A stretch of 64,000 nt of DNA, taken from positions 18,310 through 82,309 of the forward strand of contig JAISKB010000022.1 of NCBI GenBank assembly GCA_031261085.1. The letters run 5' to 3'. The translations under genes were made by a program, and so were the position numbers. The DNA comes from Christensenellaceae bacterium (lineage in GTDB: Bacteria; Bacillota; Clostridia; Christensenellales; CAG-138). This document shows, one piece after another, positions 13,539 through 60,253 of this stretch; positions within the stretch are counted from its first letter, which is position 1; the number at the start of each line of letters is the position of its first letter. The notes beneath the pieces are model-generated. The model had not been told where the DNA came from, did not search any database, and worked only from the letters and a program-made list of their open reading frames with translations.

Positions 13539-13539
13539 C

Positions 13540-39208: not shown

Positions 39209-40024
39209 TCACTCCTTGCAATCGAAGTAGCTGTTCATCCATTTTAGCGCCGCACGCATACCGTCGCGTTCGGCAACCTCATTGAACTTTTGACGTTCCT
39301 CCGGAACCATCAACATGCTCAGCGCGCACATATCCATGCCCCAATGGTCGATGGTATCATACCCTTGCAGCTCCATCGTTTTGTTGCACAGCTGCTTAAT
39401 CATGCGCATCGTTTCCTTCGGCAAGCGCGAAAGCTTTTTGGCCAGCAGCATATATTCCTTCTCAAAATCCGCCTGGGGCACAACCTTGTAGACCAGCCCC
39501 ATCTCCTGCGCCTTATAGGCGTCATAGCGTTCGCCCAGCATAAGGGAGGCTTTGGCCTGGCTCACCGTATTAAACGACCAGATCGTGCGCACCAAGGGCA
39601 TCATGCAGTGACGTATTTGGGGCGTGCCAAACCTGGCCGTATCCGCCGCAATCACAAAGTCGGAAATCAGCGCCAGCTCGAAGCCCGCGCCCAAGCAGTA
39701 GCCATCCACCGCGCTCACGGTAGGCTTGGGCAAGTGAAACAGCTTTTTATAGGACTGCAATTCCTCCTGCAGCCTATCCCACCGATGATAGATGGGTTCC
39801 TCGCCTTTTTTAAGGTCGGTTCCCACATCGAAGCCGGAGGAGAAGTTATCTCCTTGGCCGCGCAGCAGCAGCACGCGGATGTCGTCATCCTTTGCCACCA
39901 TGTCCGCCACGCGCTCCAGCTCCGCATAGGATTCCGCCGTAACGGCGTTGAGCTTTTGCGGCCTGTTTAGCGTAACGATGGCGATATGATCCTTTACTTC
40001 AAATAATATGTTATTAAATTCCAT
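39209..40024 (-). CDS. Crotonase-superfamily protein (atypical enoyl-CoA hydratase/isomerase)
   Basis: TLNRPQKLNA, FSSGFD, GAGFELALISD, FGTPQ. Confidence 0.88.
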   Translation of the reverse strand: MEFNNILFEVKDHIAIVTLNRPQKLNAVTAESYAELERVADMVAKDDDIRVLLLRGQGDNFSSGFDVGTDLKKGEEPIYHRWDRLQEELQSYKKLFHLPKPTVSAVDGYCLGAGFELALISDFVIAADTARFGTPQIRHCMMPLVRTIWSFNTVSQAKASLMLGERYDAYKAQEMGLVYKVVPQADFEKEYMLLAKKLSRLPKETMRMIKQLCNKTMELQGYDTIDHWGMDMCALSMLMVPEERQKFNEVAERDGMRAALKWMNSYFDCKE

Positions 40025-40051
40025 GGGGATGCCTCCAATCCAGTCGCACCA

Positions 40052-41218
40052 TCAAATGATGTTTCTATTGCGGTAATCGTCATACTCGGCGCGATCCATG
40101 CCCAGCAGCTCCAAGTATACTTCTTCATTATGCTCGCCGATTTCCGGCGGGCGCGTATACTGTTCTACCGGCCGCTCCGAAAGCTTGACCGGGCTCGCGA
40201 TATACGGCACGGGACCTACGCCGGGTATATCGATATCGATGATTTGGTTGTTTGCGCGCAATTGCGGGTTCGCCAATATCCGTTTCTGGTTCGCAACAAC
40301 AGCGACGGGCAGAGCGGCCTTTGCGAAGATTTCTTCCACCTCATCGCAGGTCTTATCCGACATCCATTTTTCAATTGCGGCCAGCAGCTTGCTCACATCC
40401 CGCACGCGGGCTTCCATTTGATCATACTCCGGGTTGTTGAGCGCATCGTCGTTTAAGAATTCCCGCAGCCGCTTAAACATGGGCGTGGTTGCGGCGTTGA
40501 TATAGATGTAACCGTCCTTTGCCTTAAGCACGCCGCGCGGTGCGGATTCCGGGGCCAATTCCAGCGGGCCGCCCATAGCGTAGCCGGCCAAAACGGGCGA
40601 TTGCAGCACCACCATGCTATTGAGCATGGCCATATCCAAAAACTGCCCTCTCCCGGTGCGTTCCCGGTCGTAGAGCGCAAGCAGGATGCCAATCGTAACA
40701 TGGGTGGCCGTCATCGTATCGGAAATTGCGCCATGGCCGGTCCCGGGGCGTCCACCCGGCTCCGCCGGCGCCGTCATGCCGCTCATGGCCGAAACAACGC
40801 CGTCAAAGCTCACGCGGTCGCTATACGGGCCCGTTTGCCCAAACCCGGTAACCGAGGCCATGATGGCGCGTGGATTGATCTTTTTCACCTCGTCGTATGT
40901 AAGGCCCATCTTGGCCATAACGCCCACGCGGAAGTTTTCAACGATAACGTCGCATTTTTCTACCAGCTTGCGGAGCAAAGCCTTGCCCTCATCGCTGCGA
41001 AAATCGACAGTAATACTCTTTTTATTGCGGTTGTACGCGGGGAAATACAAGCTGACGCCATCTTTCCAGGGCCCGAATAGACGGGTATCCTCGCCGGTGC
41101 CGGCCCGCTCCGCTTTGATGACCTCGGCGCCCATATCCGCCAAAATCATGGTGCAATAAGGCCCGGCAATATATCTTGAAAAGTCCAATACCCGAATGCC
41201 CTCTAATATTCCGCCCAT
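40052..41218 (-). CDS. Class III CoA-transferase (CaiB/BaiF family)
   Basis: GIRVLDFS, LADMGAEVIK, NRNKKS, ENFR, catalytic Asp in AISDT, PEIGEH. Confidence 0.92.
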   Translation of the reverse strand: MGGILEGIRVLDFSRYIAGPYCTMILADMGAEVIKAERAGTGEDTRLFGPWKDGVSLYFPAYNRNKKSITVDFRSDEGKALLRKLVEKCDVIVENFRVGVMAKMGLTYDEVKKINPRAIMASVTGFGQTGPYSDRVSFDGVVSAMSGMTAPAEPGGRPGTGHGAISDTMTATHVTIGILLALYDRERTGRGQFLDMAMLNSMVVLQSPVLAGYAMGGPLELAPESAPRGVLKAKDGYIYINAATTPMFKRLREFLNDDALNNPEYDQMEARVRDVSKLLAAIEKWMSDKTCDEVEEIFAKAALPVAVVANQKRILANPQLRANNQIIDIDIPGVGPVPYIASPVKLSERPVEQYTRPPEIGEHNEEVYLELLGMDRAEYDDYRNRNII

Positions 41219-41267
41219 TTTAATCACTCCTGACTACCTTAAATTCAAAATAAAATGTGTTTTATAC

Positions 41268-42083
41268 TCAACTTTTGCCAAACTTTTCATCCCGCCAGGC
41301 AAAAGCAGCTTTTAAGCCCTTTTCCGCGACCACATCGTTAAACGCCTGCGCCTCCGCGGATTTGCATACCAGTGAATAATGCGCCGCATCCAAGCTCATC
41401 TTGACGGCTTCCGGAACGCCCATCAAATCGTATGCCCTGTTTAAAGCGCGCTTGTTCAATTGCAGCGTGCCATAAGGCAGTTTGCACATGCGGCCGCACA
41501 GGTTGGCCACCACGGTATCGATTTCTTCCTCCGACACGACATAGTTGACCAAATTTGCACGCAACGCCGTTTGCGCATCGATTTTTTCGCCGGTTAACAT
41601 AAGCTGCTTGCAGATGCGCAGGTCTATCACATAAGGCAGCATCAAATATTGGCTGGTTCCGCCAAATAGTATTTCCGGCTCCCCAAACATAGAATTTTCT
41701 GTACAGACAACCAAATCACAAGCCGTCATCATATCAAACGCGCCCGCAAGGCAATGCCCCTGCACCTGCGCGATAACAGGCTTCCCCATCTCCCATATGG
41801 TTTGGAACGCATTGTTGTTGGATTGCAGATGCGCCCTCCATTCTATGCCGTTTTGCGGTTTATGCCCCCTATCCGGCGAAAGGTCAAACCCGGAGGAAAA
41901 CGCCTTGCCGCCGGCGCCCTTTATCACCACCACACGAACTTCATCATCCGCCTCGGTGCCAAGCAGCATGCGCCGCATTTCTATCAGCATGTCCTGCGTG
42001 AGCGCGTTATGCTTCTGCGGCCGGTTGAGGGTAATCGTGCCGACAAAATTTTCTTTCGAATAGAGAATATCTTTATGCTCCAC
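41268..42083 (-). CDS. Crotonase-superfamily protein (paralog of 39209-40024)
   Basis: TLNRPQKHNA, FSSGFD, AGAFDM, FGEPE. Confidence 0.88.
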   Translation of the reverse strand: MEHKDILYSKENFVGTITLNRPQKHNALTQDMLIEMRRMLLGTEADDEVRVVVIKGAGGKAFSSGFDLSPDRGHKPQNGIEWRAHLQSNNNAFQTIWEMGKPVIAQVQGHCLAGAFDMMTACDLVVCTENSMFGEPEILFGGTSQYLMLPYVIDLRICKQLMLTGEKIDAQTALRANLVNYVVSEEEIDTVVANLCGRMCKLPYGTLQLNKRALNRAYDLMGVPEAVKMSLDAAHYSLVCKSAEAQAFNDVVAEKGLKAAFAWRDEKFGKS

Positions 42084-42342
42084 GTTTTTGTTACCCCAAA
42101 TTCTTTAAAAATTGCTAAACGATCCCAATCGGCAAAAGAATCCCTGTTTGCCAATGTAGTTGACCTTATTAATTAAATTAAGTGCGAATCAAGCGCCTAT
42201 TCATTCAGACCGCGGCAAAACAGCCTTGCTTTGAGAAACCGCGCCAACAGCTTGCGCTTTTGTTACATGTGGCGGCCCATCGGCCTTTGCTGGGCCGCCA
42301 CCGTTATATTGGGATTTGCGTTTTATGCAATGCCTTACCTTA

Positions 42343-43356
42343 CTAGTCTAAAACAAACTCCACTACGATTTCGCCCGCAAGTATCTTATCGAGCAAAACC
42401 TGAACCTTATCGCGTACATCCTGCGGCACTACATCGTTACAGTAAACGAAGTCGTTCACGCCTTCCGCATACCCATACATCTTCTGTACGCTCATCTCCA
42501 GCTTGCCTTCCTTGGCCTTTTCGATTACCTGCACCATCATCTTATCCGCATAGGTAAGCGCGGCGGCAATCTCTTTGCCGTTGGAAATCTCATCGAAGTG
42601 GGTTTCGAATGCAATCGCGTACTTTGCGCCTTCCGCTTCGGCCGCAGCCTGCACCACGCCCGCGCTGGCGCCGCTGGCGGAGAAGCCGATTACATCAAAG
42701 CCCTGCGCATACAGGTTTGCCGCCAGCTCACGCGTGATGGTGGTATCGGCAAAGGTATCCGCGATTACATATTTATCCTCGATATCCGGGTTTACATACT
42801 TTACGCCCTGCTGCCAACCGGCGGCCTGCTTTTGAATGGATTCAATCTCTTTGCCGCCGATAAAGCAAACCTTATTGGTCTGCGTCATATAGGCCGCGCA
42901 AGCGCCGGAAAGGAAGCCGTTTACCAAGCGGTCCCCGCCCTGGCCCTCTGTGATGTTTGGATACTCGGCTACGTTGTTGATCATGCCATCGTAGCTAAAG
43001 AACTGGATGTCCGGGTAATCCTTGGCAACGGCGATAGTCGCCTCCACATGGCCGCTGAACTGCGTCATAATCAAGTCGTAAATGCCCTGCTCCGCGAGCG
43101 CGCGGATCTTGGGTTCGTATTGGCTGGTTTCGGATACCTCTACCATCTTGATATTGACATCGTCATGCTCTTCGTTATACTTCGTTAGCGTCTCAACCAT
43201 GTTGGAGAGCCAAACGGCCTGATCGAAGGGGTATATGGCACAAAATGCCACGTTGAATACGTCCTTTTGTTCCGTTTCTTTCGCTTTGGAACCGCAACCG
43301 GCAGCCAACATGCCCAACATAAGAATGCACAGGGTGACGCTCAGAATCTTTTTCAT
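42343..43356 (-). CDS. BMP-family ABC substrate-binding lipoprotein
   Basis: Lipobox AAGC; BMP-fold motifs (VAKDYP, GVKYVNP). Confidence 0.85.
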   Translation of the reverse strand: MKKILSVTLCILMLGMLAAGCGSKAKETEQKDVFNVAFCAIYPFDQAVWLSNMVETLTKYNEEHDDVNIKMVEVSETSQYEPKIRALAEQGIYDLIMTQFSGHVEATIAVAKDYPDIQFFSYDGMINNVAEYPNITEGQGGDRLVNGFLSGACAAYMTQTNKVCFIGGKEIESIQKQAAGWQQGVKYVNPDIEDKYVIADTFADTTITRELAANLYAQGFDVIGFSASGASAGVVQAAAEAEGAKYAIAFETHFDEISNGKEIAAALTYADKMMVQVIEKAKEGKLEMSVQKMYGYAEGVNDFVYCNDVVPQDVRDKVQVLLDKILAGEIVVEFVLD

Positions 43357-43466
43357 AGTCTTTCTCCTTTATGTGTAGTGTGGTTTATTCAAATGCGGCG
43401 GCCCGCCGTCCCGAGTGAACCGCCGCATTGCATAATGCTATCGCTACAGGTTAAAATGGAAACAGA

Positions 43467-44552
43467 TTAATAATGGAAATCGCGCGTAATCGTAATCTTG
43501 CCATCCAGCACATCAGCCAGTATTTCGGCAAAGCGGTCCTGCACATCCTGAGGAACGGCATCGCCCGCGCAGAAGGGAACTTCATTCACGCCATCCGGGA
43601 AGCCGTAGATCTTCACGATGCTCATCTGCAGCGTGCCATCCATCAGCGCTTTGATTGCGTTCACGCCCATCACGCCGTTGTGCGCAACGCCGGAAGCCAG
43701 CTCGTGCCCATCGGCGATTTCATGGAAGTGCGATTCGAAGGGCAGTACCCAAGCATACAGGTCGCCCTTAAATTCCGCAGCCGCCTGCACCACGCCGGCA
43801 TTCGCGCCGCTGGCGGAAACGCCTATGATGTCATAGCCTTGCTGATAGAGCGAGGTGGCCATTTCACGGGTGATGGTGGTATCGTTGAACGTATCGGGAA
43901 TCACGAATTTCTCTTCCACATCGGGGTTAACATACTTGATGCCCTGCTGCCACCCGGCCGCGATCATCTGCACGTTTTCAATATCCTTGCCGCCCATGAA
44001 CACGACCTTGCCGGTCTTGGTCATCAAAGCCGCCAGGGCGCCGGTCAAAAAGCCGGTGGATAGACGGTCACCGCCGCGGCCTTCCGTCACGTTGGGGTAT
44101 TGCTCGATGTTGGGCACCATGCCATCCTGATTGAAGAACACGATGTTTGGGTAATCCTTCGCCACGGCCAGCGTCGCTTCTACATGGCCGCTGAACTGGG
44201 TCATAATCATGTCATAGATGCCCTGCTCGGCCAGCGCGCGGATTTTGGGCTCGTATTGGCTGGTTTCGGATACTTCCACGATCTTGATATTGACATTGTC
44301 ATTCTCGTCATCGAACTTGCGCATGTCTTCGATCATTTCCGTAAGCCAAACCGCCTGGTCAAATGGGTAGATTGTGCAAAGGGCTATATTCCAAACCTTT
44401 GCGGGTTCTTCCGCCGGCGCATCCGGTGCTGCCTGTGCGGCCGGGGCAGCCGGCGCGGGCGCAGGCGTTGCCGCCGGAGCCGCACAGGCCGCTAACAGAA
44501 AACAGCAGACCAGTACAAGGGCCATTGCAACCGTTCCAGTTCTTTTCATCAT
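43467..44552 (-). CDS. BMP-family ABC substrate-binding lipoprotein (paralog)
   Basis: Lipobox LAAC, Ala/Pro linker; long near-identical block shared with 42343-43356. Confidence 0.85.
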   Translation of the reverse strand: MMKRTGTVAMALVLVCCFLLAACAAPAATPAPAPAAPAAQAAPDAPAEEPAKVWNIALCTIYPFDQAVWLTEMIEDMRKFDDENDNVNIKIVEVSETSQYEPKIRALAEQGIYDMIMTQFSGHVEATLAVAKDYPNIVFFNQDGMVPNIEQYPNVTEGRGGDRLSTGFLTGALAALMTKTGKVVFMGGKDIENVQMIAAGWQQGIKYVNPDVEEKFVIPDTFNDTTITREMATSLYQQGYDIIGVSASGANAGVVQAAAEFKGDLYAWVLPFESHFHEIADGHELASGVAHNGVMGVNAIKALMDGTLQMSIVKIYGFPDGVNEVPFCAGDAVPQDVQDRFAEILADVLDGKITITRDFHY

Positions 44553-44647
44553 TGAATCCTCCATTTATTTTTTGGTATTTTTTCGTAGTGTTATCACACC
44601 ACCTTACATTTTTGTAAAGTGGACATCTAACTTTTATGGGACCGCGT

Positions 44648-45628
44648 TTACTCCTCGCTGTTCACACTATGGTGAAACGCCCTGCTGGCTAATATCTCCG
44701 GGTCATTTTGCCTAATGCGCAGCTGCAATTTGGAGAATGCCGTCCTTTCCGATAGCTTCCGTATCACCGGCGGCATCACCGCGAACAAAATTGCCAAGAT
44801 ATATGGAAGCATGGAAAGGAATTGAATCGGTATCCCCTCGCTGCTCAAATTCAGCACCAAAGCATCGCACAGGCCAAACAAAATGCAGCCGAGGAACGCC
44901 CGAATAGGCTCGCCCGCCGAAAGTACGATTGCCGCAAGCGCCGTAAAGCCGCGCCCATCCGTCATGCCCACGTTGAACAAGTTGGCGGTAAGCGAGAGCT
45001 GGGCGCCGCCCAATCCCGCTAAACAGCCGGTGGTCATAAGCGCGATATACCGCACCTTTCTGGTGCTGATGCCTACCGCAACCGCCGCCTCTTCATACGC
45101 GCCGGTAGCGCGCAGCGAAAGGCCGTAGTTGGTTTTGTAGTACACAAACTGTATTACGAACGGCAGCAACAGCGCCACATATACCAATGCGGAATGGTTG
45201 TTAAAAATATCGGCGACAATGGGGATGCTCTTTATGATGGGCACCTGAAAGCGGGGAAGCGCCAGAGCACTGTCTAAATAGATGCGCCCGCTGGAACCAA
45301 ATACGGGTATCATCAAAAAGCGCGTCATGCCGGCTACGATGGTATTGATGGCAAATGCGCAAATAACCGGGTTTACGCTGAGTTCTATCACGAAAAAGGC
45401 AAATATCAACGCGAGCAGCATCACCAATATCGCCGCAAAGGCCATGCCCAAATAGGGGGAACCAAAAAGGTAGGTGCCCGTTACCGCCAAAAAGCAGCCG
45501 GCCAGCATATATCCTTCTAACCCAAGCGGGAATACCTTGATGCGGAAAGAGAAGATACCGCCCAAAGCAACCAGTAACGTTGGCACCAGCAGGCGCACAG
45601 TCAGACCCAGCAGCTGCGTAATATTCAT
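44648..45628 (-). CDS. ABC transporter permease
   Basis: GLEG, GRGFTALAA, LPY. Confidence 0.88.
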   Translation of the reverse strand: MNITQLLGLTVRLLVPTLLVALGGIFSFRIKVFPLGLEGYMLAGCFLAVTGTYLFGSPYLGMAFAAILVMLLALIFAFFVIELSVNPVICAFAINTIVAGMTRFLMIPVFGSSGRIYLDSALALPRFQVPIIKSIPIVADIFNNHSALVYVALLLPFVIQFVYYKTNYGLSLRATGAYEEAAVAVGISTRKVRYIALMTTGCLAGLGGAQLSLTANLFNVGMTDGRGFTALAAIVLSAGEPIRAFLGCILFGLCDALVLNLSSEGIPIQFLSMLPYILAILFAVMPPVIRKLSERTAFSKLQLRIRQNDPEILASRAFHHSVNSEE

Positions 45629-46722
45629 TGTGCCGCCCTCTCTTCTTTATGATATTTTCTCCTTTTGCGGCTGTCCGTAATTCTGCCAATCATCACGGCC
45701 AGGTTGACGGAGGAGAAGAACATGATGAAGCCTTCCACCACGGATACGATTTCGGGCGATACATCCGTGGTTGTGGAGAGCATGACCGAACCGCCCTGCA
45801 GCGCGCCCAGCAGCAGCGATGCAAACAGCATGCCCAGCGGGTTGTGCATGCCCAGCAGAGCAACCGTAACCCCTTTAAACCCAAGCGCCGACGCGAAGTT
45901 GTTATATACCACATGGTATACGCCCAACACCTCGCTGATGCTTGCAAGGCCGGCCAAGCCGCCGCCCAATACCGCCGAAAAGAGTATGGTTTGTGTAACG
46001 GGCAACCCGCTCGCTTTTGCGTAGGCCGTGTTTTGGCCCACCATGCGCAGCCGGTAACCGGGGATGCTCTTTTTAATCAACAATATAAACAAAATCAGGA
46101 TGGCGATTACGCCAATATACAACGCCACAGTAGATATCGTGGGCGCAACGGCTATGGACTTGGGATAGCTTGCGGAATCCGGATTGCGAAGCGGGCTGTG
46201 CAGGAAAAGATATTCCACCAACAGCAGGGAGATATAATTCAGCATAACGAATACCATCGCTTCGTTTACGCCGAAGTAGTGCTTGGTAATAGCCGGTATC
46301 AGCGCGCACACCACAGCCGCCACGATGCCGCATATAACCATCAGTATCATCATGAGCGGCTGCGGCAGGTGCGGCAGGTAGCACTGCACGCATACGAGCA
46401 GCAGCGCGGCCGCATACATTTGTCCCTCTTGGCCAATCGCGAAAAAGCCGCCCCTGGAACATACGGAGAAGGACAGACCCAGCAAGAATATCGGGATGGT
46501 GTAACGAATGGTCTGCTTGATGCTGGATACGCTCCCCAAAGCCCCTTTGAACAGCGCCGTATACGCCTCCAGGGCATTGGCACCGGTGGCGGTAACCACC
46601 AGCCCCGCGGCAACCAGGGAGAGAAGCAACGCCACGAACGGCGATATGCGGTGGGCAATCTTATCCTTTCGAATCAGCTCTTTCCATAACCCACGCAGAG
46701 TATCAGTGAGCTTCTGCTTCAT
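45625..46722 (-). CDS. ABC transporter permease
   Basis: IGQEGQ, MLNY, GFKGVTVALLG. Confidence 0.88.
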   Translation of the reverse strand: MKQKLTDTLRGLWKELIRKDKIAHRISPFVALLLSLVAAGLVVTATGANALEAYTALFKGALGSVSSIKQTIRYTIPIFLLGLSFSVCSRGGFFAIGQEGQMYAAALLLVCVQCYLPHLPQPLMMILMVICGIVAAVVCALIPAITKHYFGVNEAMVFVMLNYISLLLVEYLFLHSPLRNPDSASYPKSIAVAPTISTVALYIGVIAILILFILLIKKSIPGYRLRMVGQNTAYAKASGLPVTQTILFSAVLGGGLAGLASISEVLGVYHVVYNNFASALGFKGVTVALLGMHNPLGMLFASLLLGALQGGSVMLSTTTDVSPEIVSVVEGFIMFFSSVNLAVMIGRITDSRKRRKYHKEERAAQ

Positions 46723-48283: not shown

Positions 48284-48292
48284 TTCTCTCCC

Positions 48293-48871: not shown

Positions 48872-49129
48872 TTCCCTGTCCTTTGCCCGCCAAATTAATT
48901 ATTAATTTATTAATTGCCCAATAAACCACTATAGAATATATTACCTTGGGCCAATATCCATCCTGTTGTAAAACGTTAGTTATTTGCTGGTAAAGTATCC
49001 GTTGATGAAAGAATATTTTTATTTAATTATAGTTCGGGCCGCCATACAATTGCATCAGGTGTTTGTATAACACAAAAAATGATTTATTGTCATTATGCAT
49101 AATTCCAAATATTTCCTTTCATTTCGGTA

Positions 49130-51837: not shown

Positions 51838-51848
51838 GGAGAAGCACG

Positions 51849-52688
51849 ATGAAAAAAGTAATGGTAGTAGGCGCGGGCCTGATGGGCGCCGGCATAGCGC
51901 AAACCTGTGCGCAGGCCGGGTACAGTGTTGTATTGGTAGATGTAAAAAAGGAATATGTAGAGGGCGCCATCGCCAAGCTGCAAACGCAGCTGGATAAGCT
52001 GGTTGCCAAGGGCAAGTTCACGCAGGAACAAGCGGACGCCACACTCTCGGGCATTACCCCCGCCACCGAATATGCGGCGGGCAAAGATGCGGATTTGGTG
52101 ATTGAGGCCGTGAATGAAAACCTCGATTTAAAGAAAAAGGTTTTCGCGGAACTGGATCAGGCCGTGGGCGCAAACGCGATCCTGGCATCCAACACCTCCA
52201 CGCTCTCCATCACCGCGCTCGGCGGGGTCACCAAGCGGCCGGAGAAGTGCATTGGCTTGCACTTTTTTATCCCGGCGCCGGTCATGAAGCTGGTGGAAAT
52301 CATCCCCGGCCTAAACACCGCTCAGGAAGTAGTGCAGCAAATACAGGACTTCGCCAAAGACATTGGCAAAACCGCGGTATTGTGCAACGATTACCCCGGC
52401 TTTACCGTAAACCGGCTTGCCGTGCCCATGTGGAATGAAGCCATGAACCTGGTAATGGAGGGGTTGCGCCCCGAAGATGTGGATACCGCCATGAAGCTGG
52501 GCGGCAATCACCCCATGGGGCCGCTGGAGCTGGCAGATTTTGCGGGGCTGGATACCGTGCTGGCCGTGATGACCGCACTGTGGGAGGGCTTTAAGGATCC
52601 AAAATTCCGTCCTTCCCCGCTGCTCGTAAAGATGGTGGAAGCGGGCAACTTGGGCCGCAAAACCAAAAAAGGATTTTACGAATATTGA
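51849..52688 (+). CDS. hbd: 3-hydroxyacyl-CoA dehydrogenase
   Basis: GAGLMG, SNTS, GLHFF, HPMGPL, GRKTKKGFY. Confidence 0.9.
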   Translation: MKKVMVVGAGLMGAGIAQTCAQAGYSVVLVDVKKEYVEGAIAKLQTQLDKLVAKGKFTQEQADATLSGITPATEYAAGKDADLVIEAVNENLDLKKKVFAELDQAVGANAILASNTSTLSITALGGVTKRPEKCIGLHFFIPAPVMKLVEIIPGLNTAQEVVQQIQDFAKDIGKTAVLCNDYPGFTVNRLAVPMWNEAMNLVMEGLRPEDVDTAMKLGGNHPMGPLELADFAGLDTVLAVMTALWEGFKDPKFRPSPLLVKMVEAGNLGRKTKKGFYEY

Positions 52689-52732
52689 TATAGCCCTATG
52701 GATGCAGCCCCAATAAACAAGGCGGTAATGGT

Positions 52733-53938
52733 ATGGTTTTGATTTCTTGCAACGCAGGAAGCACGTCCCTTAAACTGGGCGTTATCGAAATGCCCGGCGG
52801 TAAAACGCTCGCTTCCGAAAAGATAGAGCGCATCGGCTCTTTGGATTCCACCTTAAACTTCAAAGACGCCGCAGGTATCGAATGGACCCGCAATATCTAT
52901 ATCGACAACCACGTTTGCGCCGCGCGGGCGGCGCTGGGCGCGCTAAAGGAAGAGGGTATCATCAAGAGCACCTCTGGCTTGGATGGCATTGCATTTAAGG
53001 CCGTCCACGGCGGAGCGTTAACCGAGCCTACCTTGATAGACGATGAAGTGCTGGCCGTGATGGAACGGTTTATCACCGTTGCGCCGCTGCACAATCGGGT
53101 CTATTTGGATGTGATACGCGCATTCCGGCAGGTAGCGCCAAAGCTGCCCATGGTAGCGGTGTTTGAAACCGCGTTCCATAACACCATGCCAGAATATGCC
53201 TATACCTATGCCGTGCCGCTGGAATGGAAGGAAAAATACGGCGTGCGCAAGTATGGCTTCCACGGCGCTTCGCATTCCTACATCAATAAGCGCATACAAG
53301 AGCTTACCGGCCGCACGGACTTAAAAGTAATCTCCTGCCACCTGGGGGGCAGCTCCTCCTTATGCGCACTCCAAAGCGGCGTCTCCATCGATGCCACGCA
53401 GGGGTTTTCCCCACAATCCGGCATCTCCATGGGTACCCGCAATGGGGATTTGGACGTATACATTATCTTCTACCTAGTGGCCAATGGCTTTACGCTCGAG
53501 GAGATCAACGATGCACTGTATACCAAGAGCGGCCTCAAAGGGCTTTCCGGCATCAGCGAGGATACCCGCGATATCGAATTGGCCGCCTCGCGCGGCGATA
53601 AGCGGGCGGAGCTTGCGCTGCAGGTATACTGTTATGATATAGTAAAGTATATCGGCGCGTATTGGGCGCTGTTGGGCGGCCTCGATGCCATCGTATTTAC
53701 GGGCGGCATAGGCGAAAACAGCATTTTTATCCGCGCAAAGGTGCTGCGCATGCTGGAGCACATGGGCGTGGTGCTCGATGCGGATAAAAACCAGAACAAC
53801 ATCCCCAACCAGCGTATATCGACCGAAGCCTCCAGGGTGGATGTATATGTCATCCGCACAAATGAAGAGCTTATGGTAGCTGAAAAAGCGGCGGAAGTAC
53901 TTTCTCAATTTGAAGGAGAGGATACACAACATGCCTGA
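52733..53938 (+). CDS. ackA: Acetate/propionate kinase family (variant active site)
   Basis: NAGSTSLK, APLHN, YGFHG, MGTR, FTGGIGEN, TNEE. Confidence 0.88.
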   Translation: MVLISCNAGSTSLKLGVIEMPGGKTLASEKIERIGSLDSTLNFKDAAGIEWTRNIYIDNHVCAARAALGALKEEGIIKSTSGLDGIAFKAVHGGALTEPTLIDDEVLAVMERFITVAPLHNRVYLDVIRAFRQVAPKLPMVAVFETAFHNTMPEYAYTYAVPLEWKEKYGVRKYGFHGASHSYINKRIQELTGRTDLKVISCHLGGSSSLCALQSGVSIDATQGFSPQSGISMGTRNGDLDVYIIFYLVANGFTLEEINDALYTKSGLKGLSGISEDTRDIELAASRGDKRAELALQVYCYDIVKYIGAYWALLGGLDAIVFTGGIGENSIFIRAKVLRMLEHMGVVLDADKNQNNIPNQRISTEASRVDVYVIRTNEELMVAEKAAEVLSQFEGEDTQHA

Positions 53939-54710
53939 AGCAATTCGCGTCATCAAAAACGCCGGCATTGGCGAACTGATTTTTGACAAGCCGGAGAACC
54001 GCAACACAATGGACGAGTTTTTTTTAGAAAGCCTGCTTGCCGGTATCGACGCGCTTGATGGCGATACGCAAATTCGCGCCATCATTTTAAAAAGCACGCA
54101 CCCCAAGGTGTTTTTGGCGGGCGCGGACATCGCTTACATGGTCGGCAACACGCCCATAAAGGCCAAACGCTTTTGCGATTTAGGCTGCGCCGCCTTCTCC
54201 CGCATCCATACTTGCGCCAAGCCAGTTATTGCGGCCATCAATGGGCATTGCCTGGGCGGTGGGCTGGAATTGGCGCTGGCCTGCGATATCCGCATAGCGA
54301 GCACAAACTGCAAGCTGGGCTTCCCCGAAGTGAAGCTGGGCATATCGCCCGGTTGGGGCGGGCTATACCGCTGCGCCCGGCTGATTGGCGAAGGCCGTGC
54401 GAAGGAGCTGCTGTATACCGGCAAGCTGATTGCCGCGCAGGAGGCCGAGCGGATGGGGCTAATCAACCATGCGGTGGAGCCGGAGCAGCTGCAAGCCACC
54501 TGCGAGCAGCTCGCAAACGAGATTGCCGCGAACGCGCCCATCCCCGTTTCGCTGATTAAAAAATGGCTGCCGCAGGCGGTGGACGCCGCGGATGATGTGG
54601 CAGACCATATCTCCGGCACCCTCGTGGCGGAATGCTTCGCATCCGAGGACCAAACCGAAGGTATGCGCGCTTTCCTCGAAAAACGGGAAGCGAAATTCAC
54701 AGGCAAGTAG
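53931..54710 (+). CDS. crt: Enoyl-CoA hydratase (canonical crotonase, both catalytic Glu present)
   Basis: AGAD, GGGLELALACD, FPEVKLG, AFLEKR. Confidence 0.88.
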   Translation: MPEAIRVIKNAGIGELIFDKPENRNTMDEFFLESLLAGIDALDGDTQIRAIILKSTHPKVFLAGADIAYMVGNTPIKAKRFCDLGCAAFSRIHTCAKPVIAAINGHCLGGGLELALACDIRIASTNCKLGFPEVKLGISPGWGGLYRCARLIGEGRAKELLYTGKLIAAQEAERMGLINHAVEPEQLQATCEQLANEIAANAPIPVSLIKKWLPQAVDAADDVADHISGTLVAECFASEDQTEGMRAFLEKREAKFTGK

Positions 54711-54721
54711 GGGAGTTTTAC

Positions 54722-54768
54722 CCCACCCTTTTAACCCCCTCCCGCCGGGAGGGGGTTAAAAGGGTGGG
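54722..54768. repeat. Perfect 22-bp inverted repeat, REP-like, between convergent genes
   Basis: CCCACCCTTTTAACCCCCTCCC-GCC-GGGAGGGGGTTAAAAGGGTGGG; related copies at 39171-39201 and 62037-62068. Confidence 0.85.
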
Positions 54769-54778
54769 TCGCGCCTGT

Positions 54779-55957
54779 TTATTCAAAACAACTTTCCAGC
54801 ACCTGCTGTACATACTCCCGCTTAATCAGCCCGCGCCCGGGGTATGCCATAACGTTATCGACGATTTCCGGCAGCTGCTCCTTCTTCACGCCAAGGCCTT
54901 TCAGCGTTGTGGCAAGTCCCCATCTTTCATACATCGCGCGCAGCGCCAAAATACCCTCGCGACCAACATCCTTGTCGCTCATCCCGGGCCTTTGCTCTAT
55001 GCCGAACACCTGCAGGGCAAAGCGCTTTGTCTTGATGGGGTTTTCTTCATTCACCTGCAAAAAGCAGGCGGGCAGCAACACCGCCAAGCCATCCCCATGC
55101 CGCGTGTTGGTCACGGCGCCAACGCCCGTTTGTATGGCGTGCGCCGGCCAGCGCGCAAAGGGGTTGATACGGCGTCCAATACCGCCCAATCCATCGATGG
55201 ATTGTGACGACAGCCAGCATACGCGGCCGCGCAGCTCCACATCCTCCAAATGATCGAGTACGCCGGAGCAGCCGATCATACAGCGCACCAGCAATTCCAC
55301 ATATTCATCCATAAATGGCTGTACCGCGAAATCGTACATATACGCTTCGCAGGCATGGGCAATCGCATCCGCCATGCCCGCCGCCGTTAAGTGCCGGGGC
55401 ACGCTTACATGCAGTTCCGGATCCATAATGGCAAACGCGGGGTAGGCGTGGGGCGAAAATACATTCCACTTTGCCGGGTCGTTCCCGCTCCTGTCGTTGG
55501 ATACGATGGTGCTGCCGTCCGTTTCGGAGCCGGTGCCCGATATGGTGGTTACCGCGCCGATTTTTAGCGCGCCGGCAGGCTTGGCCGCGCCGCTATAAAA
55601 ATCCCATACATCGCCGTCATAAACCGCGCCCAGCGCAATAGCCTTGGCGGAATCTATCGTGCTGCCGCCGCCAATGCCTACCACAACCTCAACCTTTTCC
55701 CGCTTGCAAATCGCAATCCCTTCATCTATTTTGCTAAGATGCGCGTTGGGCAACACGCCGGGCAGCTGAATCGCCCTCACGCCGGCCGCCTCCAAGGAGT
55801 TTACCGCGCGTTGGAATACGCCCAGCTTCTCCAGCGGGCCGGCATCCTGTACCAATAGCGCCGTCCTACCCAGCGGCGCTACCTGTTCGCCCAATTCATC
55901 GTATTTGCCGGGGCCAAACAAAATTTTCGTAGGTTTACAGTATTGAAATGGTTCCAT
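54779..55957 (-). CDS. Iron-containing alcohol dehydrogenase (BdhA/YqhD-like clade)
   Basis: GGGSTIDSAK, TGSE, DAIAH, HAIQ...HGDG. Confidence 0.88.
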   Translation of the reverse strand: MEPFQYCKPTKILFGPGKYDELGEQVAPLGRTALLVQDAGPLEKLGVFQRAVNSLEAAGVRAIQLPGVLPNAHLSKIDEGIAICKREKVEVVVGIGGGSTIDSAKAIALGAVYDGDVWDFYSGAAKPAGALKIGAVTTISGTGSETDGSTIVSNDRSGNDPAKWNVFSPHAYPAFAIMDPELHVSVPRHLTAAGMADAIAHACEAYMYDFAVQPFMDEYVELLVRCMIGCSGVLDHLEDVELRGRVCWLSSQSIDGLGGIGRRINPFARWPAHAIQTGVGAVTNTRHGDGLAVLLPACFLQVNEENPIKTKRFALQVFGIEQRPGMSDKDVGREGILALRAMYERWGLATTLKGLGVKKEQLPEIVDNVMAYPGRGLIKREYVQQVLESCFE

Positions 55958-55975
55958 GTTGTTTTCTCCTGTCCT

Positions 55976-56788
55976 CTATTTATATATCCCTGAAAGGTCA
56001 AAGGTTTCTTCCAATACGCTGATTTCCTCCGGCGCGCCCACCGCGGCCAAACCGCCATCCACCTTAAGCACCGCGCCCGATACATACGACGCGTTTTCCG
56101 AGGCAAGCCAAACCACCGCTTTGCCTATATCCGCCGCGCGCCCATTTTTGCGCAGGGGCACAAACCGGTGGGTGTTTTTGTAAAAGGGATGCTCGCTTTC
56201 TTCCTCGGGGGCACACCTTACGTTGATAATGCCCGGCGCAAACCCATTGACGCGAATGCCGTAGCGGCCCAGGTCCATCGCAAAGGATTCGATGGCACGG
56301 TTCATGCCCGCCTTAAACGCGCCGTATATGCAATCATGCATGTGCGCATTGTAGGCCCGCACCGAGGTGTTGAACAGCAGACTGCCTTCGACATTGTTTT
56401 CGACCATATACTGCGCGGCCGCCTTTGCCCCCAATATCATGCCGCGAAAGTTTACATGGTACAGCCAATCCATCGCGTCCGCCGTGAGCTCCATCAGCTT
56501 CTGTCCGCGAAACGCCCCTGCGTTGGCAACATATACATCCAACCTGCCAAGCTGCGCTATGGTTTGCTTCACCAACCGCTCCGGCACATCGGCCTCCCCG
56601 GTATCCCCCTGCAGCAGGATGCACTTCACACCCAGCGCGGTTATTTCATCGCAGGCGCTAAGCCCTTCCTCTTTGGAGGTGTTATAATGCACGGCGACTT
56701 CGTAGCCGGCCCTGGCGAATTCCAGCGCGATGCCGCGGCCGATGCCTTTGCCGGACCCTGTAACCAATACCACTTTCTCGTTTCGCAT
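55976..56788 (-). CDS. Short-chain dehydrogenase/reductase
   Basis: TGSGKGIG, NAG, YGAFK, VDGG; AGGAG RBS before ATG 56788. Confidence 0.9.
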   Translation of the reverse strand: MRNEKVVLVTGSGKGIGRGIALEFARAGYEVAVHYNTSKEEGLSACDEITALGVKCILLQGDTGEADVPERLVKQTIAQLGRLDVYVANAGAFRGQKLMELTADAMDWLYHVNFRGMILGAKAAAQYMVENNVEGSLLFNTSVRAYNAHMHDCIYGAFKAGMNRAIESFAMDLGRYGIRVNGFAPGIINVRCAPEEESEHPFYKNTHRFVPLRKNGRAADIGKAVVWLASENASYVSGAVLKVDGGLAAVGAPEEISVLEETFDLSGIYK

Positions 56789-57127
56789 AGATTTTCTCCT
56801 TATGATAGATTGGGAAGCGGATAGGGACATAAAGATGTATATATTTATGATGCCACACGCTTCCCCTGTATGCATTATAACGGCGCATAATAGTGATTGG
56901 CAATTCGCCTAAAATGTAAAAATACTATTTTTCATGCTTAGTATGAAATGCGGCGGTTTTCTTAATACGCGCCAAACAGTTCAACTGGTTGCCCGCATAA
57001 AATATGCATAAAACTATTGTTGTGGCCAACATTGTTAGATGGCTGCCGTTATTGTATAGTGCTATTATATCCTATCGCAATTGGGATGCCTTATCCACAT
57101 AAAAAGAATGCAGAGCGAGGTAGGAAC

Positions 57128-57889
57128 ATGGAAAACTTAAAGGTAACGGCAATCAAGTATGGCGCTTATCGTATGGAAAAAAAGTTTTACGATTATGAGC
57201 CCGGCGGCATCATCAGCCAGCCTATTTGGGGCGCGCTCATCCAGGGCGCGGGCAGGAACATACTGGTGGATACCGGGCTTGAATATAACCTGGAATGGCT
57301 GAATAAAAACGCGCTCCCCACCACGATAGAAGAGGATGAGATATTTGAAAACGCGTTGGCAAAGGCCGGCGGCATTACCCCAAATGATGTCGATATCGTA
57401 ATCAATACGCATATGCATTACGACCATATAGGCAACAACCGCTTGGTAAAAAACGCGTTGTTCTATGTTTCGCAAAGGGAATACCAAATCGCCTTCGCCC
57501 CCATGAAATGCCAAGCCAAATTATACGAAAACACCCACCACCTGTTTGATGAACGGGCGGTCGATCCGTTTGCCTGGCGGTTTGTTACGGGCATCACGGA
57601 TGTTGCCCCCGGGGTGCGCATCATACCCACGCCCGGGCATACCGATGGCCATATGTCCGTATTCGTAAAAACGGCGGAAGGCACGCTTTGCGTCAGCGGC
57701 GATGCCGTCAACTTAATCGAAGCACTGGAAAACCGCTATATCAATAAGTTCCATAGCAGCATACCCGATTGTTACCGCAGCTATGATGTCATTTTAGACA
57801 ACGCTGTTTGCATACTACCCGGTCATGAACCCTCCCTCCAAAAGTTCCAAAGCAGCGATTTCCCGCGTATCGACGGTTTTCGCAGGTAA
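57128..57889 (+). CDS. Metallo-beta-lactamase-fold lactonase (AiiA/AttM AHL-lactonase-like)
   Basis: LVDTG, THMHYDHIG (HxHxDH), TPGHT, GDA, PGHE. Confidence 0.82.
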   Translation: MENLKVTAIKYGAYRMEKKFYDYEPGGIISQPIWGALIQGAGRNILVDTGLEYNLEWLNKNALPTTIEEDEIFENALAKAGGITPNDVDIVINTHMHYDHIGNNRLVKNALFYVSQREYQIAFAPMKCQAKLYENTHHLFDERAVDPFAWRFVTGITDVAPGVRIIPTPGHTDGHMSVFVKTAEGTLCVSGDAVNLIEALENRYINKFHSSIPDCYRSYDVILDNAVCILPGHEPSLQKFQSSDFPRIDGFRR

Positions 57890-57899
57890 GGAGTAGAAT

Positions 57900-59054
57900 A
57901 TGGCAAGCTACCCGCGTTTTTATTTCCCTACCCGCATTTTTAGCGGCGCCGGGAGTATCGAACAGCTCATAGCATTTGTGGGCGCGCAGGACGCCGTGTT
58001 TTTAATAACGGATGCCACCCTCGTGCAGCTGGGCTTGGTAAAACGGGTAACCGATATGCTCGATGGCCATGTGCGGGCGCTGCGCGTATATGACAGCGTG
58101 CTGCCCGACCCGGCTATCGAGATGGTATGTGAAGCCACCGAGCAAGCCCACGCGTTTGGCGCTACCGCCATCGTATGCGTGGGCGGCGGCAGCGTGATAG
58201 ACGCGGCCAAATCGGTCGCCATGCTGCTGGCCCACTTCCCCGATTATCAGCCCTATGCCCTGCGCAAGCGCCCGCCGGAGCATCCCTCCCTCCCCTGCTA
58301 TGCCATACCCACCACGGCGGGTACCGGCGCGGAGGCCAGCAGCGCCGCTGTGCTCTCCTACAACCATGTTAAGGGCGGCATAAAGGCCGAAACCATGTTT
58401 TTACCCGCCGTTTTTTTGGATGAAACCATGATGCTGGGCCTGCCCCAAAGCATCACGGCCGAAACCGCAATGGATGCGCTGACGCATTCCGTAGAGTCCT
58501 ACATTGGACTGCACCGGCAAACGATATTGGATGCTTTAAACCTGCATGTCGTGCGGTTGATATTCCGTTACCTGCCCCGCGCCTATGCGAATGGTGCTGA
58601 CCAGGAAGCACGCGCCGCGCTTACCCAAGCTGCCTGCATGGGCGGCCTGGCGATGGGACATAGCGGCACCGGGCTTGTGCATGCTTTCAGCAACACGATG
58701 TGCGAAGAATATCACGACCTTTCCCACGGGCGCAGCAATTCGATCTTCCTGCCCTATTGCACGCGCTACAACGCGCCGGCAGTGCTGGATAGGTTGGCGG
58801 ATATTGCACAGGCCGCAGGCATCCAAACCCTTGGGCTTACCGCCGAGCAGGCGGGCTTTGCCGCTGTGGAGGCAATCGAACAGCTGAGCGATACGGTGAA
58901 CATTCCCAAGCGGGTCACGGGGCATACGCTCAGCGCGGCGCGCATTGCGGAGCTGGCCGAAAATACGCGCACGCATTTTATTACCGCCAACAACCCCCGG
59001 GTACCTTCCAAAGAGGACCTTATAAAAATCATTCACCAGGCGATGCCATTATAG
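57900..59054 (+). CDS. Iron-containing alcohol dehydrogenase
   Basis: GGGSVIDAAK, PTTAGTG, DALTH, GLVH...HG, NNPR. Confidence 0.9.
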   Translation: MASYPRFYFPTRIFSGAGSIEQLIAFVGAQDAVFLITDATLVQLGLVKRVTDMLDGHVRALRVYDSVLPDPAIEMVCEATEQAHAFGATAIVCVGGGSVIDAAKSVAMLLAHFPDYQPYALRKRPPEHPSLPCYAIPTTAGTGAEASSAAVLSYNHVKGGIKAETMFLPAVFLDETMMLGLPQSITAETAMDALTHSVESYIGLHRQTILDALNLHVVRLIFRYLPRAYANGADQEARAALTQAACMGGLAMGHSGTGLVHAFSNTMCEEYHDLSHGRSNSIFLPYCTRYNAPAVLDRLADIAQAAGIQTLGLTAEQAGFAAVEAIEQLSDTVNIPKRVTGHTLSAARIAELAENTRTHFITANNPRVPSKEDLIKIIHQAMPL

Positions 59055-59074
59055 GCGCAAAAAAGGAGAGCACG

Positions 59075-60253
59075 ATGGTACCATTTACCTATCAAAAGCC
59101 GACGAAAATCATATATGGCCCGGGACAGGTTGCCGAAATTGGGAACATCAGCGCGGGGTACGGTAAAACCGCCCTGTTCATCAAGGGTTCCCGCTCTATG
59201 GAGCGCAATGGCGTAATCGGCGCATCCATAGAGGCGCTAAAGGCCGCCGGTTTGCGCGTGCACACGATTGAGGGCTGGGAGCCAAACCCCAAGCTGACGG
59301 CGGTGGACGCGGCCATTGCGCTCGCCCGAAAAGAAGATGTGGATTTGATCCTCGCGTTTGGAGGCGGTTCCGCCATTGACCTTGCGAAAGCGATTTCCAT
59401 CGGCGTACCCTATCATGGGGATGTTTGGGGTTTTTTTAGCGGTACATGCGCGCCGAAGGCCGCACTGCCCGTCGGCGTAGTCACCACCATAGCCGGGGCG
59501 GGTTCCGAGGCGGGCGCCGCCTGTGTTATCACCTGCGACCGCCCCGGTTTTGCACGCGCAAAATGGAACGTATTTTCCCCATTGCTCGCGCCCAAATTCG
59601 CCATATTGGATGCGCAGCTGCATGTAAGCGTGCCCCCTCGCCTAACCGCCGCCGGCATGATAGATATGTTTGCCCACGCTTGTGAAGCCTACTTTCTCGA
59701 TACCAGCGAGCCCGCGCTGCAGGATGGCACCGTAGAGCTGATTGCGCGCACGATTATCGCCTGCGAGCCGGTGCTAAAGCACCCGGAGGACTTGGCGCTC
59801 CGCGGTATGCTGGCTTGGATGTCCGCGCTCTCCATCGATACGCTGGGCAACGCCGGCCGCTCCATCAAAATGGGGGCCCGGTGGCCGGGGCATACGATAC
59901 AGGCCGGCATTGGCGCCATTACGGATACCCGTCACGGAGATGGGCTTGCCGTGCTGCTGCCCGCGTGCTGCCTGGAGTTGAACAAGAGGAATCCTGCGCG
60001 CACCAAAAAATTTGCACAAAATGTATTTGGCATTGTACCACAAGCCGGCATGAGCGACCAGGATATTGGTGAAGCGGGCTGCATCGCCATGCGAGATACC
60101 TTCCGCCGCTGGGGGCTCCCCACCACCTTTGCCGAAATGGGTATCGATCCAAACACCCTGGAAGTGGTTGTTAAAAACCTGAAGCAATATCCGAATCCGG
60201 GCACCATTACCGAGGAATATGTCCGCCGGATTTTTAGCCTTTGCGCAAAATAA
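59075..60253 (+). CDS. Iron-containing alcohol dehydrogenase (paralog of 54779-55957)
   Basis: GGGSAIDLAK, AKWNVFSP, DMFAH, HTIQ...HGDG. Confidence 0.88.
   Translation: MVPFTYQKPTKIIYGPGQVAEIGNISAGYGKTALFIKGSRSMERNGVIGASIEALKAAGLRVHTIEGWEPNPKLTAVDAAIALARKEDVDLILAFGGGSAIDLAKAISIGVPYHGDVWGFFSGTCAPKAALPVGVVTTIAGAGSEAGAACVITCDRPGFARAKWNVFSPLLAPKFAILDAQLHVSVPPRLTAAGMIDMFAHACEAYFLDTSEPALQDGTVELIARTIIACEPVLKHPEDLALRGMLAWMSALSIDTLGNAGRSIKMGARWPGHTIQAGIGAITDTRHGDGLAVLLPACCLELNKRNPARTKKFAQNVFGIVPQAGMSDQDIGEAGCIAMRDTFRRWGLPTTFAEMGIDPNTLEVVVKNLKQYPNPGTITEEYVRRIFSLCAK

Follow-up and report, generated by a model that had tools for sequence, protein, structure and literature searches.

What might a cluster that joins substrate uptake, lactone chemistry, coenzyme A (CoA) ester chemistry and acetate formation degrade, and do its genes serve one pathway at all? 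This question is raised by positions 39209–60253 of a 64,000-nucleotide (nt) stretch of contig JAISKB010000022.1 from the uncultured anaerobe Christensenellaceae bacterium (assembly GCA_031261085.1, genome G000), hereafter the window. The original prediction described this region as 18 genes for a candidate undescribed fermentation of a lactone or hydroxy acid, encoding an ATP-binding cassette (ABC) importer with two BMP-family binding proteins, a metallo-β-lactamase-fold (MBL) lactonase, a short-chain dehydrogenase/reductase (SDR), three iron-containing alcohol dehydrogenases (Fe-ADHs), a family III CoA-transferase, three crotonase-family proteins, a 3-hydroxyacyl-CoA dehydrogenase (Hbd), a thiolase (Thl), PduL, an acetate kinase (AckA) and a CdaR/PucR regulator. 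Open reading frame (ORF) calling with Pfam and NCBIfam assignment located every one of these families where it had been placed, and counted 19 ORFs rather than 18.

Our analysis points to a real and rare catabolic island that appears to represent a new form of CoA-dependent hydroxy-acid or lactone catabolism. The gene content suggests a self-contained, CdaR-governed, β-oxidation-like system that converts an imported, lactone-forming, sugar-like compound into acetate and ATP, a proposal that we regard as evenly poised between right and wrong. Its steps and their order are drawn from family membership and gene order. The BMP-type ABC importer would take up the substrate; the Fe-ADHs and the SDR would form a lactone by oxidizing an alcohol or cyclic hemiacetal; the MBL lactonase would open the lactone to a hydroxy acid; and the family III CoA-transferase would convert this acid to its CoA ester. 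Two atypical crotonase-fold proteins, ECH_A and ECH_B, could dehydrate, isomerize or epimerize the ester into a form suitable for the canonical crotonase (Crt) and Hbd, and the thiolase would then release acetyl-CoA together with a short hydroxyacyl-CoA. The latter may be the CoA donor for the transferase, and a CdaR-type regulator would have a natural ligand in the hydroxy acid thereby freed, for example glycerate. Finally, PduL and AckA would convert acetyl-CoA to acetate with formation of ATP. The Fe-ADHs could act as an electron sink or, equally, on the substrate itself. As the scheme has no acyl-CoA dehydrogenase step, only an acid already oxidized to the 3-hydroxy or 2-enoyl level could enter it.

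Organization and integrity of the cluster

The 19 genes form five transcription units on alternating strands. The minus strand carries, in order, the genes for PduL, a fused ABC ATPase, two permeases, two BMP proteins, ECH_B, the CoA-transferase and ECH_A, and upstream of this set, on the same strand, lies the CdaR/PucR regulator gene. Genes for the thiolase, Hbd, AckA and Crt diverge from the regulator gene and are met convergently by those for the SDR and Fe-ADH 1, while a unit encoding the MBL hydrolase, Fe-ADH 2 and Fe-ADH 3 diverges from the SDR gene. Apart from a chance hairpin match, no Rfam family was found in 38000–62500.

The island is not an assembly artefact. A 25,286-nt contig of sequencing run X1, which is possibly the source, covers 40300–60290 with zero differences, and near-identical short contigs of run X2, from a second study, are scattered over 40457–60290; because the X1 contig spans the cluster and X2 pieces lie across it, we consider the assembly sound.

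The thiolase–Hbd–AckA–Crt operon

The plus-strand operon opens with a BktB-like thiolase (50614–51837; Pfam Thiolase_N/C; NCBIfam BktB subfamily, 498 bits) that has the catalytic Cys/His/Cys motifs and probably starts at Met16. Next come Hbd (51849–52688; Pfam 3HCDH_N/3HCDH), a second acetate/propionate kinase (52733–53938; Pfam Acetate_kinase, 388.5 bits) and Crt (53910–54710; Pfam ECH_1, 200 bits). At the two positions that we take, from rat enoyl-CoA hydratase, to be the catalytic Glu residues of this fold (GGGxE … PE), Crt has both (GGGLE and FPE), and they are retained in the ortholog from G064, a genome of a different genus within the same family. Catalytic motifs are intact in Crt and the thiolase, as well as in the MBL hydrolase and the ADHs. 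The kinase, a paralog with 41.7% identity to the housekeeping AckA, had been called a variant, but its scores are those of an ordinary acetate/propionate kinase: 378 bits against the 293-bit cut-off of TIGR00016 and 325 bits in comparison with a solved acetate kinase. PduL is encoded apart from AckA (48293–48871, minus strand; Pfam PTAC, 241 bits) and scores 249.8 bits against the NCBIfam phosphate propanoyltransferase model, over its cut-off of 209; it is the first gene of the importer operon, with a 9-nt gap to the ATPase gene, and holds the same place in G064, so that in both genomes it is translationally close to the genes of the importer.

Within this genome, which is 95.5% complete, a thiolase, Hbd, crotonase-fold proteins, PduL and a family III CoA-transferase are encoded nowhere but in the island. 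Housekeeping pta-ackA genes are located elsewhere (G000:C6:97914–100133), and the PduL/AckA pair of the island comes on top of them. The absences on which the original prediction had relied hold in Pfam searches: the genome gave no match to acyl-CoA dehydrogenase (PF00441; Etf itself was not searched) and none to the bacterial microcompartment (BMC) shell family (PF00936), hence none beside PduL, and no Aldedh domain occurs among the 19 island genes, the aldehyde dehydrogenases of the genome being encoded on other contigs. The genome also gave no match to BKACE (PF05853).

Lacking an acyl-CoA dehydrogenase, the Thl–Hbd–Crt set therefore cannot make butyrate here. Its direction is likely oxidative, towards acetyl-CoA, because no Bcd was found, AckA lies inside the operon and Hbd is not of the type usual in the family. 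The island Hbd is of a separate lineage from the Hbd usual in the family: homologs occur in 136 of 239 family genomes, and only that of G064 is close, at 79% identity versus at most 54% for the others.

The CoA-transferase and two atypical crotonases

The family III (CaiB/BaiF) CoA-transferase (40052–41227, minus strand; Pfam CoA_transf_3, 371.5 bits) is encoded between ECH_B (41268–42083, minus; Pfam ECH_1, 136.3 bits) and ECH_A (39209–40024, minus; Pfam ECH_1, 146.7 bits). All three predicted crotonase-family proteins are thus present, but only Crt has both canonical catalytic Glu residues. ECH_A has the first (GAGFE) and Gln in place of the second (TPQ), an E/Q pattern, whereas ECH_B has Asp in place of the first (AGAFD) and retains the second (EPE), a D/E pattern found also in its G064 ortholog; for this reason neither was filed as a canonical hydratase. 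The E/Q pattern is unique among 131 single-domain representatives aligned from the 150 best listed, and the nearest relative of ECH_A is 43% identical. Among the 120 best homologs of ECH_B, 25 are D/E and 93 are E/E; its best solved relative is 4k29 (180 bits). Several of the better ECH_A relatives are double-length tandem crotonases of 517–576 residues. These were considered as fusion evidence for a partnership of ECH_A with ECH_B and set aside, as their halves show no greater closeness to ECH_A than to ECH_B.

The best solved relative of the CoA-transferase is a succinate–hydroxymethylglutarate CoA-transferase (229 bits), and its NCBIfam matches include succinate–glutarate (252 bits) and mesaconate (234 bits) transferases. 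That these best characterized relatives act on dicarboxylates favours a different role for the importer/CoA operon, namely degradation of a C5–C6 dicarboxylic hydroxy acid such as 3-hydroxyglutarate. CoA would come from succinyl-CoA, one crotonase would dehydrate and the other decarboxylate to crotonyl-CoA, and the route would end with Crt, Hbd, thiolase, PduL and AckA. Crotonase-fold dehydratase/decarboxylase pairs occur in polyketide β-branching, such a route would account for the need for Crt, and the regulator has a sugar-diacid recognition domain. However, the transferase scores lie far under the 700–750-bit cut-offs of these models, neither ECH protein has a testable known decarboxylase signature, no explanation is offered for the SDR, lactonase and ADH modules, and to our knowledge no BMP-type importer for dicarboxylates has been described. 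We consider this role unlikely.

Similarly, the crotonase-fold proteins could take part in side-chain shortening of an unsaturated acid, for example a hydroxycinnamate derived from plant cell walls. The acid would either be hydrated, oxidized and thiolyzed in CoA-dependent steps or be cleaved by a hydratase-lyase, with the Fe-ADHs reducing the aldehydes set free. A 2-enoyl substrate fits the lack of an acyl-CoA dehydrogenase, the two ADHs of the aldehyde reductase clade described below resemble YugJ, an aldehyde reductase, and the p-hydroxycinnamoyl-CoA hydratase/lyase model scores ECH_A at 130 and ECH_B at 118 bits. Family III transferases include cinnamoyl-CoA:phenyllactate CoA-transferase. 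Yet the two ECH scores fall far short of the 276-bit cut-off, and many other crotonase models do at least as well; the sugar-dehydrogenase-like SDR, the lactonase and the BMP importer would be left without a role; and no aromatic-acid enzymes are present. This possibility, too, has little to commend it in our judgment.

Predicted entry enzymes

Turning to the steps that would precede CoA activation in the proposed lactone-to-acetate route, the SDR (55976–56875, minus strand; Pfam adh_short) is of the sugar 1-dehydrogenase type. In NCBIfam it matches L-rhamnose 1-dehydrogenase best (174 bits), followed by glucose 1-dehydrogenase (170 bits), with both scores under cut-off, and it scores 131 bits to solved glucose 1-dehydrogenases. 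Glucose and L-rhamnose 1-dehydrogenases turn cyclic hemiacetals into lactones. The divergently encoded MBL-fold hydrolase (57017–57889, plus; Pfam Lactamase_B) is lactonase-like, with an HMHYDH metal motif (HxHxDH) that is retained in G064; it matches the NCBIfam models of AiiA (90.6 bits) and 4-pyridoxolactonase (88.7 bits) far under their cut-offs, and the solved structures of these enzymes at about 70 and 64.5 bits, respectively. Since alignments with orthologs begin at residue 30 of the SDR and at residues 39–42 of the MBL hydrolase, the true starts are probably the internal Met30 at 56788 and Met37 at 57125; promoter-like sites are located between them.

A relative of the MBL hydrolase at E ≤ 1e-25 was found in one of 398 further genomes sampled within the class (G560, 45% identical). 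Its gene lies among those for a sugar-type ABC importer, an aldo-keto reductase and a LacI regulator, a sugar-lactone setting. A second MBL paralog of G560 has TRAP transporter and citrate lyase genes as neighbours, and a family III CoA-transferase and an HMGL-like lyase are encoded roughly 8 kb upstream; we set this locus aside as a different system.

The three Fe-ADHs fall into two groups. Fe-ADH 1 (54779–55957, minus; Pfam Fe-ADH) belongs to the butanol-dehydrogenase/YqhD-type aldehyde reductase clade, with Asp and His noted by eye at what are presumably the metal-ligand positions. Fe-ADH 3 (59075–60253, plus; Pfam), which is followed by a terminator-like hairpin at 60265–60281, is its paralog within the YqhD/butanol-dehydrogenase clade (49.5% identical). 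Fe-ADH 2 (57900–59054, plus; Pfam) is lactaldehyde reductase/methanol dehydrogenase-like, scoring 251 bits against the NCBIfam lactaldehyde reductase model, under its cut-off of 523, and 190–205 bits to solved relatives. The best solved relative of Fe-ADH 1 is 7w9x (246 bits), identified as the Bacillus subtilis furan aldehyde reductase YugJ (PMC8836905).

The importer comprises a fused double ABC ATPase (46703–48283, minus; Pfam ABC_tran in two stretches; G064 ortholog 77% identical), permeases Perm2 (45625–46746, minus) and Perm1 (44648–45628, minus), both Pfam BPD_transp_2, with Perm1 and Perm2 orthologs in G064 of 77% and 81% identity, respectively, and two lipoprotein substrate-binding proteins. 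BMP2 (43467–44564, minus; Pfam Bmp, 130.6 bits; G064 ortholog 81%) has the lipobox LLAAC and a Pro/Ala-rich linker and is 61.6% identical to BMP1. BMP1, of the BMP/PnrA family (42343–43356, minus; Pfam Bmp, 142.5 bits; G064 ortholog 86%), has the lipobox LAAGC, and its solved relatives are weak, at no more than 66 bits, most of them being annotated as lipoproteins or basic membrane proteins. A further BMP-type ABC importer is encoded in the window at 416–5080 on the minus strand, with a binding protein, two permeases and an ATPase that are about 30–40% identical to those of the island.

The model matches of the importer and lactonase bring up a hydroxymethyl-bearing heterocycle such as vitamin B6 as the substrate, its alcohol being oxidized to an aldehyde and a cyclic hemiacetal passing through a lactone to an acid. 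Models of a putative B6 ABC transporter are the only NCBIfam matches at E ≤ 1e-10 for the BMP proteins and permeases and the top NCBIfam match for the ATPase, and 4-pyridoxolactonase is second-best for the MBL hydrolase, just behind AiiA. Against this, the transporter parts reach only 58 of 400, 50 of 400, 135 of 465, 109 of 400 and 427 of 670 bits of the respective cut-offs, and 4-pyridoxolactonase 88.7 of 325; no island enzyme would serve for O2-free opening of the pyridine ring, and Thl, Hbd and Crt would be left without a role. We regard a B6-like substrate as very unlikely.

Candidate substrates of the proposed pathway

Within the proposed lactone-to-acetate route, an entry by way of lactol, lactone and acid that yields a 3-hydroxy or 2-enoyl acid points to a 2-deoxy aldose or a related 3-hydroxy lactone. 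The substrate class that we favour is a 2-deoxy aldose or 2-deoxy aldonate, for instance deoxyribose or deoxyribonate, a suggestion that we make with considerable doubt. The deoxyribonate idea calls for a glycerate kinase, and the genome does encode one outside the island. By our own stereochemical reasoning, 2-deoxy-D-ribonate carries a D-3-hydroxyl that an L-specific Hbd would refuse, and inversion would be needed first. Such an inversion could come about if an atypical crotonase dehydrated the compound and Crt then rehydrated it, which would put all three crotonase-fold proteins to use. The more specific picture of a fermentative β-oxidation of deoxy-sugar acids, a process so far undescribed in anaerobes, which would be fed by a 2-deoxy aldose such as DNA-derived deoxyribose, rely on CoA activation by the family III transferase and on crotonase-mediated inversion, gain ATP through the dedicated PduL–AckA pair and be carried on a cassette that moves between gut anaerobes, is likewise speculative and has perhaps one chance in several of being right.

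The regulator and a candidate operator

The CdaR/PucR-type regulator (49207–50307, minus strand; Pfam Diacid_rec and HTH_30) forms its own transcription unit, and a terminator-like hairpin follows the gene (49156–49141, minus strand). A candidate operator, the perfect palindrome TTATGCATAA, lies at 49093–49102 upstream of the PduL operon, and TATGCATWA sites are found at 50543–50551, 56869–56877, 57003–57011 and 57412–57420. All six matches to the motif in the window fall in the cluster, where 1.76 would be expected, and the 2.22 Mb genome has 47; TATGCATWA and GCAATTG are present in all three promoter regions. However, the motif was picked after inspection of these regions, and an unbiased count of 7-mers common to the three is at the level of chance (3, versus a mean of 3.2 in Markov simulations), so a shared operator is not supported.

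This count is one of several observations that weigh against a single CdaR-governed pathway. No particular step is assigned to the three Fe-ADHs; the NCBIfam matches of the entry enzymes are all far under the curated cut-offs; and the island contains no glycerate kinase, one being encoded elsewhere in the genome (G000:C9), as are DeoC-family genes. The Gln at the second catalytic position of ECH_A may mark a decayed enzyme. The weak solved relatives of the BMP proteins say little about their ligand, and at least four more BMP-type ABC systems are encoded in the genome, at least three of them on other contigs, so the importer type may be a mere default of the lineage. Finally, the CoA-transferase was not found in G064, a 98%-complete but fragmented genome, where it and ECH_A would lie past the end of a contig; as that contig ends inside ECH_B, the missing gene does not show absence.

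Conservation and rarity

The cluster appears to be very rare. Among 5.8 billion proteins, the regulator has two close relatives (79% and 73% identical), the next being at 34%, and a close ortholog occurs in only one of 239 other family genomes, that of G064 (72%). G064 has orthologs of 17 of the 19 genes, at 60–86% identity, on three abutting contigs, where the block of SDR–ADH 1/MBL–ADH 2–ADH 3 is inverted as a whole and still adjoins Crt. This supports the earlier view of the cluster as one inherited unit: the 17 orthologs stay together despite the inversion, and the cluster is absent from the corresponding site in three of the four genomes of the same genus that were examined.

The nearest relative of the CoA-transferase among the 5.8 billion proteins is 53% identical. 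The best of the matches listed in a scan of a genome collection is 45% identical, from an Oscillibacter metagenome-assembled genome, and the best of those listed in a metagenome scan is 39% identical. At the at least 160 loci from the two scans, co-occurrence with a crotonase, thiolase or Hbd was seen at low identity only, and none of the 160 loci listed has a pair of E/Q and D/E crotonases. The Oscillibacter locus (L005, 369–12514) encodes a LIV-type ABC importer, an AraC regulator, a thiolase, an SDR, a Zn-ADH and a transaldolase-like protein, and was rejected as an instance of the same system because its gene context differs. It is possibly another uncharacterized hydroxy-acid CoA pathway.

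Insertion site and probable mobility

To its left the island adjoins the ribosomal protein genes L2, L4 and L3 of the S10 operon, and to its right a metallophosphoesterase gene and a ferritin-like gene, followed by prfB and secA. In a DNA search, all seven genomes of the same genus match the right flank in its prfB part only. Four of these sites were fetched: in three (G003, G006 and G005) the distance from prfB to L3 is 1.4–2.4 kb, and the fourth (G001; L215, G001:C166, about 1450–16570) holds a different insert of 15 kb that carries another BMP-type ABC system. Because the site is empty in three of the four and differently occupied in the other, the roughly 23 kb between the S10 operon and prfB (39.2–62.08 kb) is accessory DNA at a variable site, and the G001 insert makes this site appear a hot spot for accessory uptake genes. 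The insert has a G+C content of 53.8%, compared with 56.4% for the genome.

A G+C-rich, repetitive extragenic palindrome (REP)-like element with the core CCCCCTCC..GGGAGGGGGTTA is present at the left border (39172–39194), between Crt and Fe-ADH 1 (54722–54768) and at the right border (62037–62068). The last copy lies within a stretch of about 100 nt (61971–62072) that has about 30 more partial matches across the genome. In G064, a gene for a large serine recombinase (L109, 9778–11367, minus strand; Resolvase, Recombinase, Zn_ribbon_recom and DUF4368 domains) directly adjoins the cluster, hinting at a mobile element, and the island itself is probably mobile. The insert also includes the genes for the metallophosphoesterase, a cytoplasmic-looking protein (60328–61251, minus; Pfam), and the ferritin/rubrerythrin-like protein (61336–61833, minus; Pfam). 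Unlike the adjoining prfB, these had no DNA match in the seven same-genus genomes, and a protein search did not find them on the three cluster-holding contigs of G064. They appear to be unrelated cargo with no shown tie to the pathway.

These features also suit a patchwork assembled on a mobile insert, in which three parts would share no common pathway: an importer/CoA-ester operon, a module for acetoacetyl-CoA and acetate, and a lactonase grouped with aldehyde reductases that serve detoxification. The five units on alternating strands, the REP-like element exactly at the Crt/ADH 1 junction where the G064 block is inverted, the furan aldehyde reductase as best solved relative of Fe-ADH 1, the lack of statistical support for a shared operator and the evidence of unrelated cargo all speak for it. 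On the other side, the modules travel together in two genera despite rearrangement, the regulator ortholog occurs only where the remaining cluster does, and Thl–Hbd–Crt would have no other role in a genome without acyl-CoA dehydrogenase. We treat the patchwork as a serious rival and judge it rather improbable.

If the single-pathway proposal is true, the island would be a compact, transferable module that opens a new energy substrate to a small-genome anaerobe, and hydroxy acids at the 3-hydroxy level would be fermentable through CoA esters without a flavin dehydrogenase, by means of atypical crotonases. If the patchwork is true, it is an ordinary accessory island. The set of about 19 genes is tractable for assigning function to BMP-type binding proteins that perhaps do not bind nucleosides, to a sparsely sampled clade of family III CoA-transferases, to the D/E crotonase subclade and to CdaR-type regulators of Gram-positive-like anaerobes. 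The main interest of the island is as a well-defined target for substrate discovery.

Comparison with known systems

No described cluster of the island's composition was found in the literature searched, which left subscription journals mostly uncovered and excluded supplements, and the island maps one-to-one onto none of the described clusters compared. With the clostridial Thl–Hbd–Crt–Bcd–EtfAB core it shares Thl, Hbd and a canonical Crt in one operon; that core has Bcd, whereas none was found in the island genome, and the island operon embeds AckA. Pdu and Eut microcompartment loci place a BMC shell beside PduL, in contrast to the island genome with its lack of a PF00936 match.

The original prediction had drawn analogies to Agrobacterium lactone catabolism and to oxidative deoxyribose/deoxyribonate catabolism, of which the second is the better. 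In the BlcABC/AttKLM system of Agrobacterium, an MBL-fold lactonase is encoded next to an Fe-ADH, a succinic semialdehyde dehydrogenase is needed and no CoA chemistry is involved. The island shares the MBL-fold lactonase beside an Fe-ADH, but its score against the AttM model is 61.6 bits versus a cut-off of 390, its ADHs score 114–192 bits versus 500 against the NCBIfam 4-hydroxybutyrate dehydrogenase model, and it has no Aldedh gene.

A self-contained cluster from another anaerobe, that for phloroglucinol degradation in Clostridium scatologenes, resembles the island in having an SDR and a ring-opening hydrolase, a thiolase, an enzyme of the hydroxyacyl-CoA dehydrogenase family and an acetate kinase that provides ATP (PMC10470551). 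The key enzymes named there are a dihydrophloroglucinol cyclohydrolase of the cyclase family and a BKACE-family triacetate acetoacetate-lyase (PMC10470551); both families are missing from the island, and BKACE also from the genome.

The closest resemblance is to deoxyribose catabolism. The oxidative pathway of Pseudomonas simiae uses a dehydrogenase and a lactonase to convert the sugar through a lactone to an aldonic acid; after a later SDR step, cleavage yields acetyl units and glyceryl-CoA (PMC6365646). In the island, enzymes of the lactonase and SDR types are encoded by divergently transcribed genes. The P. simiae route requires BKACE, which was not found in the island genome.

For Klebsiella michiganensis M5al, the same study describes a deoxyribonate cluster with a CoA-synthetase, a hydroxyacyl-CoA dehydrogenase, a thiolase, a CoA-transferase, a glycerate kinase, a lactonase and two major facilitator superfamily (MFS) transporters, and reports genetic support for a CoA-bound route (Price et al. 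2019, PMC6365646). The logic proposed there takes a hydroxy acid to its CoA ester, then to the 3-keto ester and, by thiolysis, to acetyl-CoA plus a short hydroxyacyl-CoA (PMC6365646). This cluster and the island both group a lactonase, a CoA-transferase, a hydroxyacyl-CoA dehydrogenase and a thiolase, a correspondence at the level of enzyme class only, and neither requires an acyl-CoA dehydrogenase. The island has none of the CoA-synthetase, glycerate kinase and MFS transporter families of K. michiganensis, whereas crotonases, Fe-ADHs, PduL and AckA, all present in the island, are not mentioned for the K. michiganensis cluster; a BMP-type ABC importer, a sugar-dehydrogenase-like SDR, a CdaR regulator and an anaerobic host further distinguish the island. 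The earlier description of the system as undescribed thus stands for the gene set and less so for the logic, a CoA-bound version of which has been proposed in K. michiganensis, and the CoA-bound deoxyribonate cluster of that organism is the closest described analog of the island.

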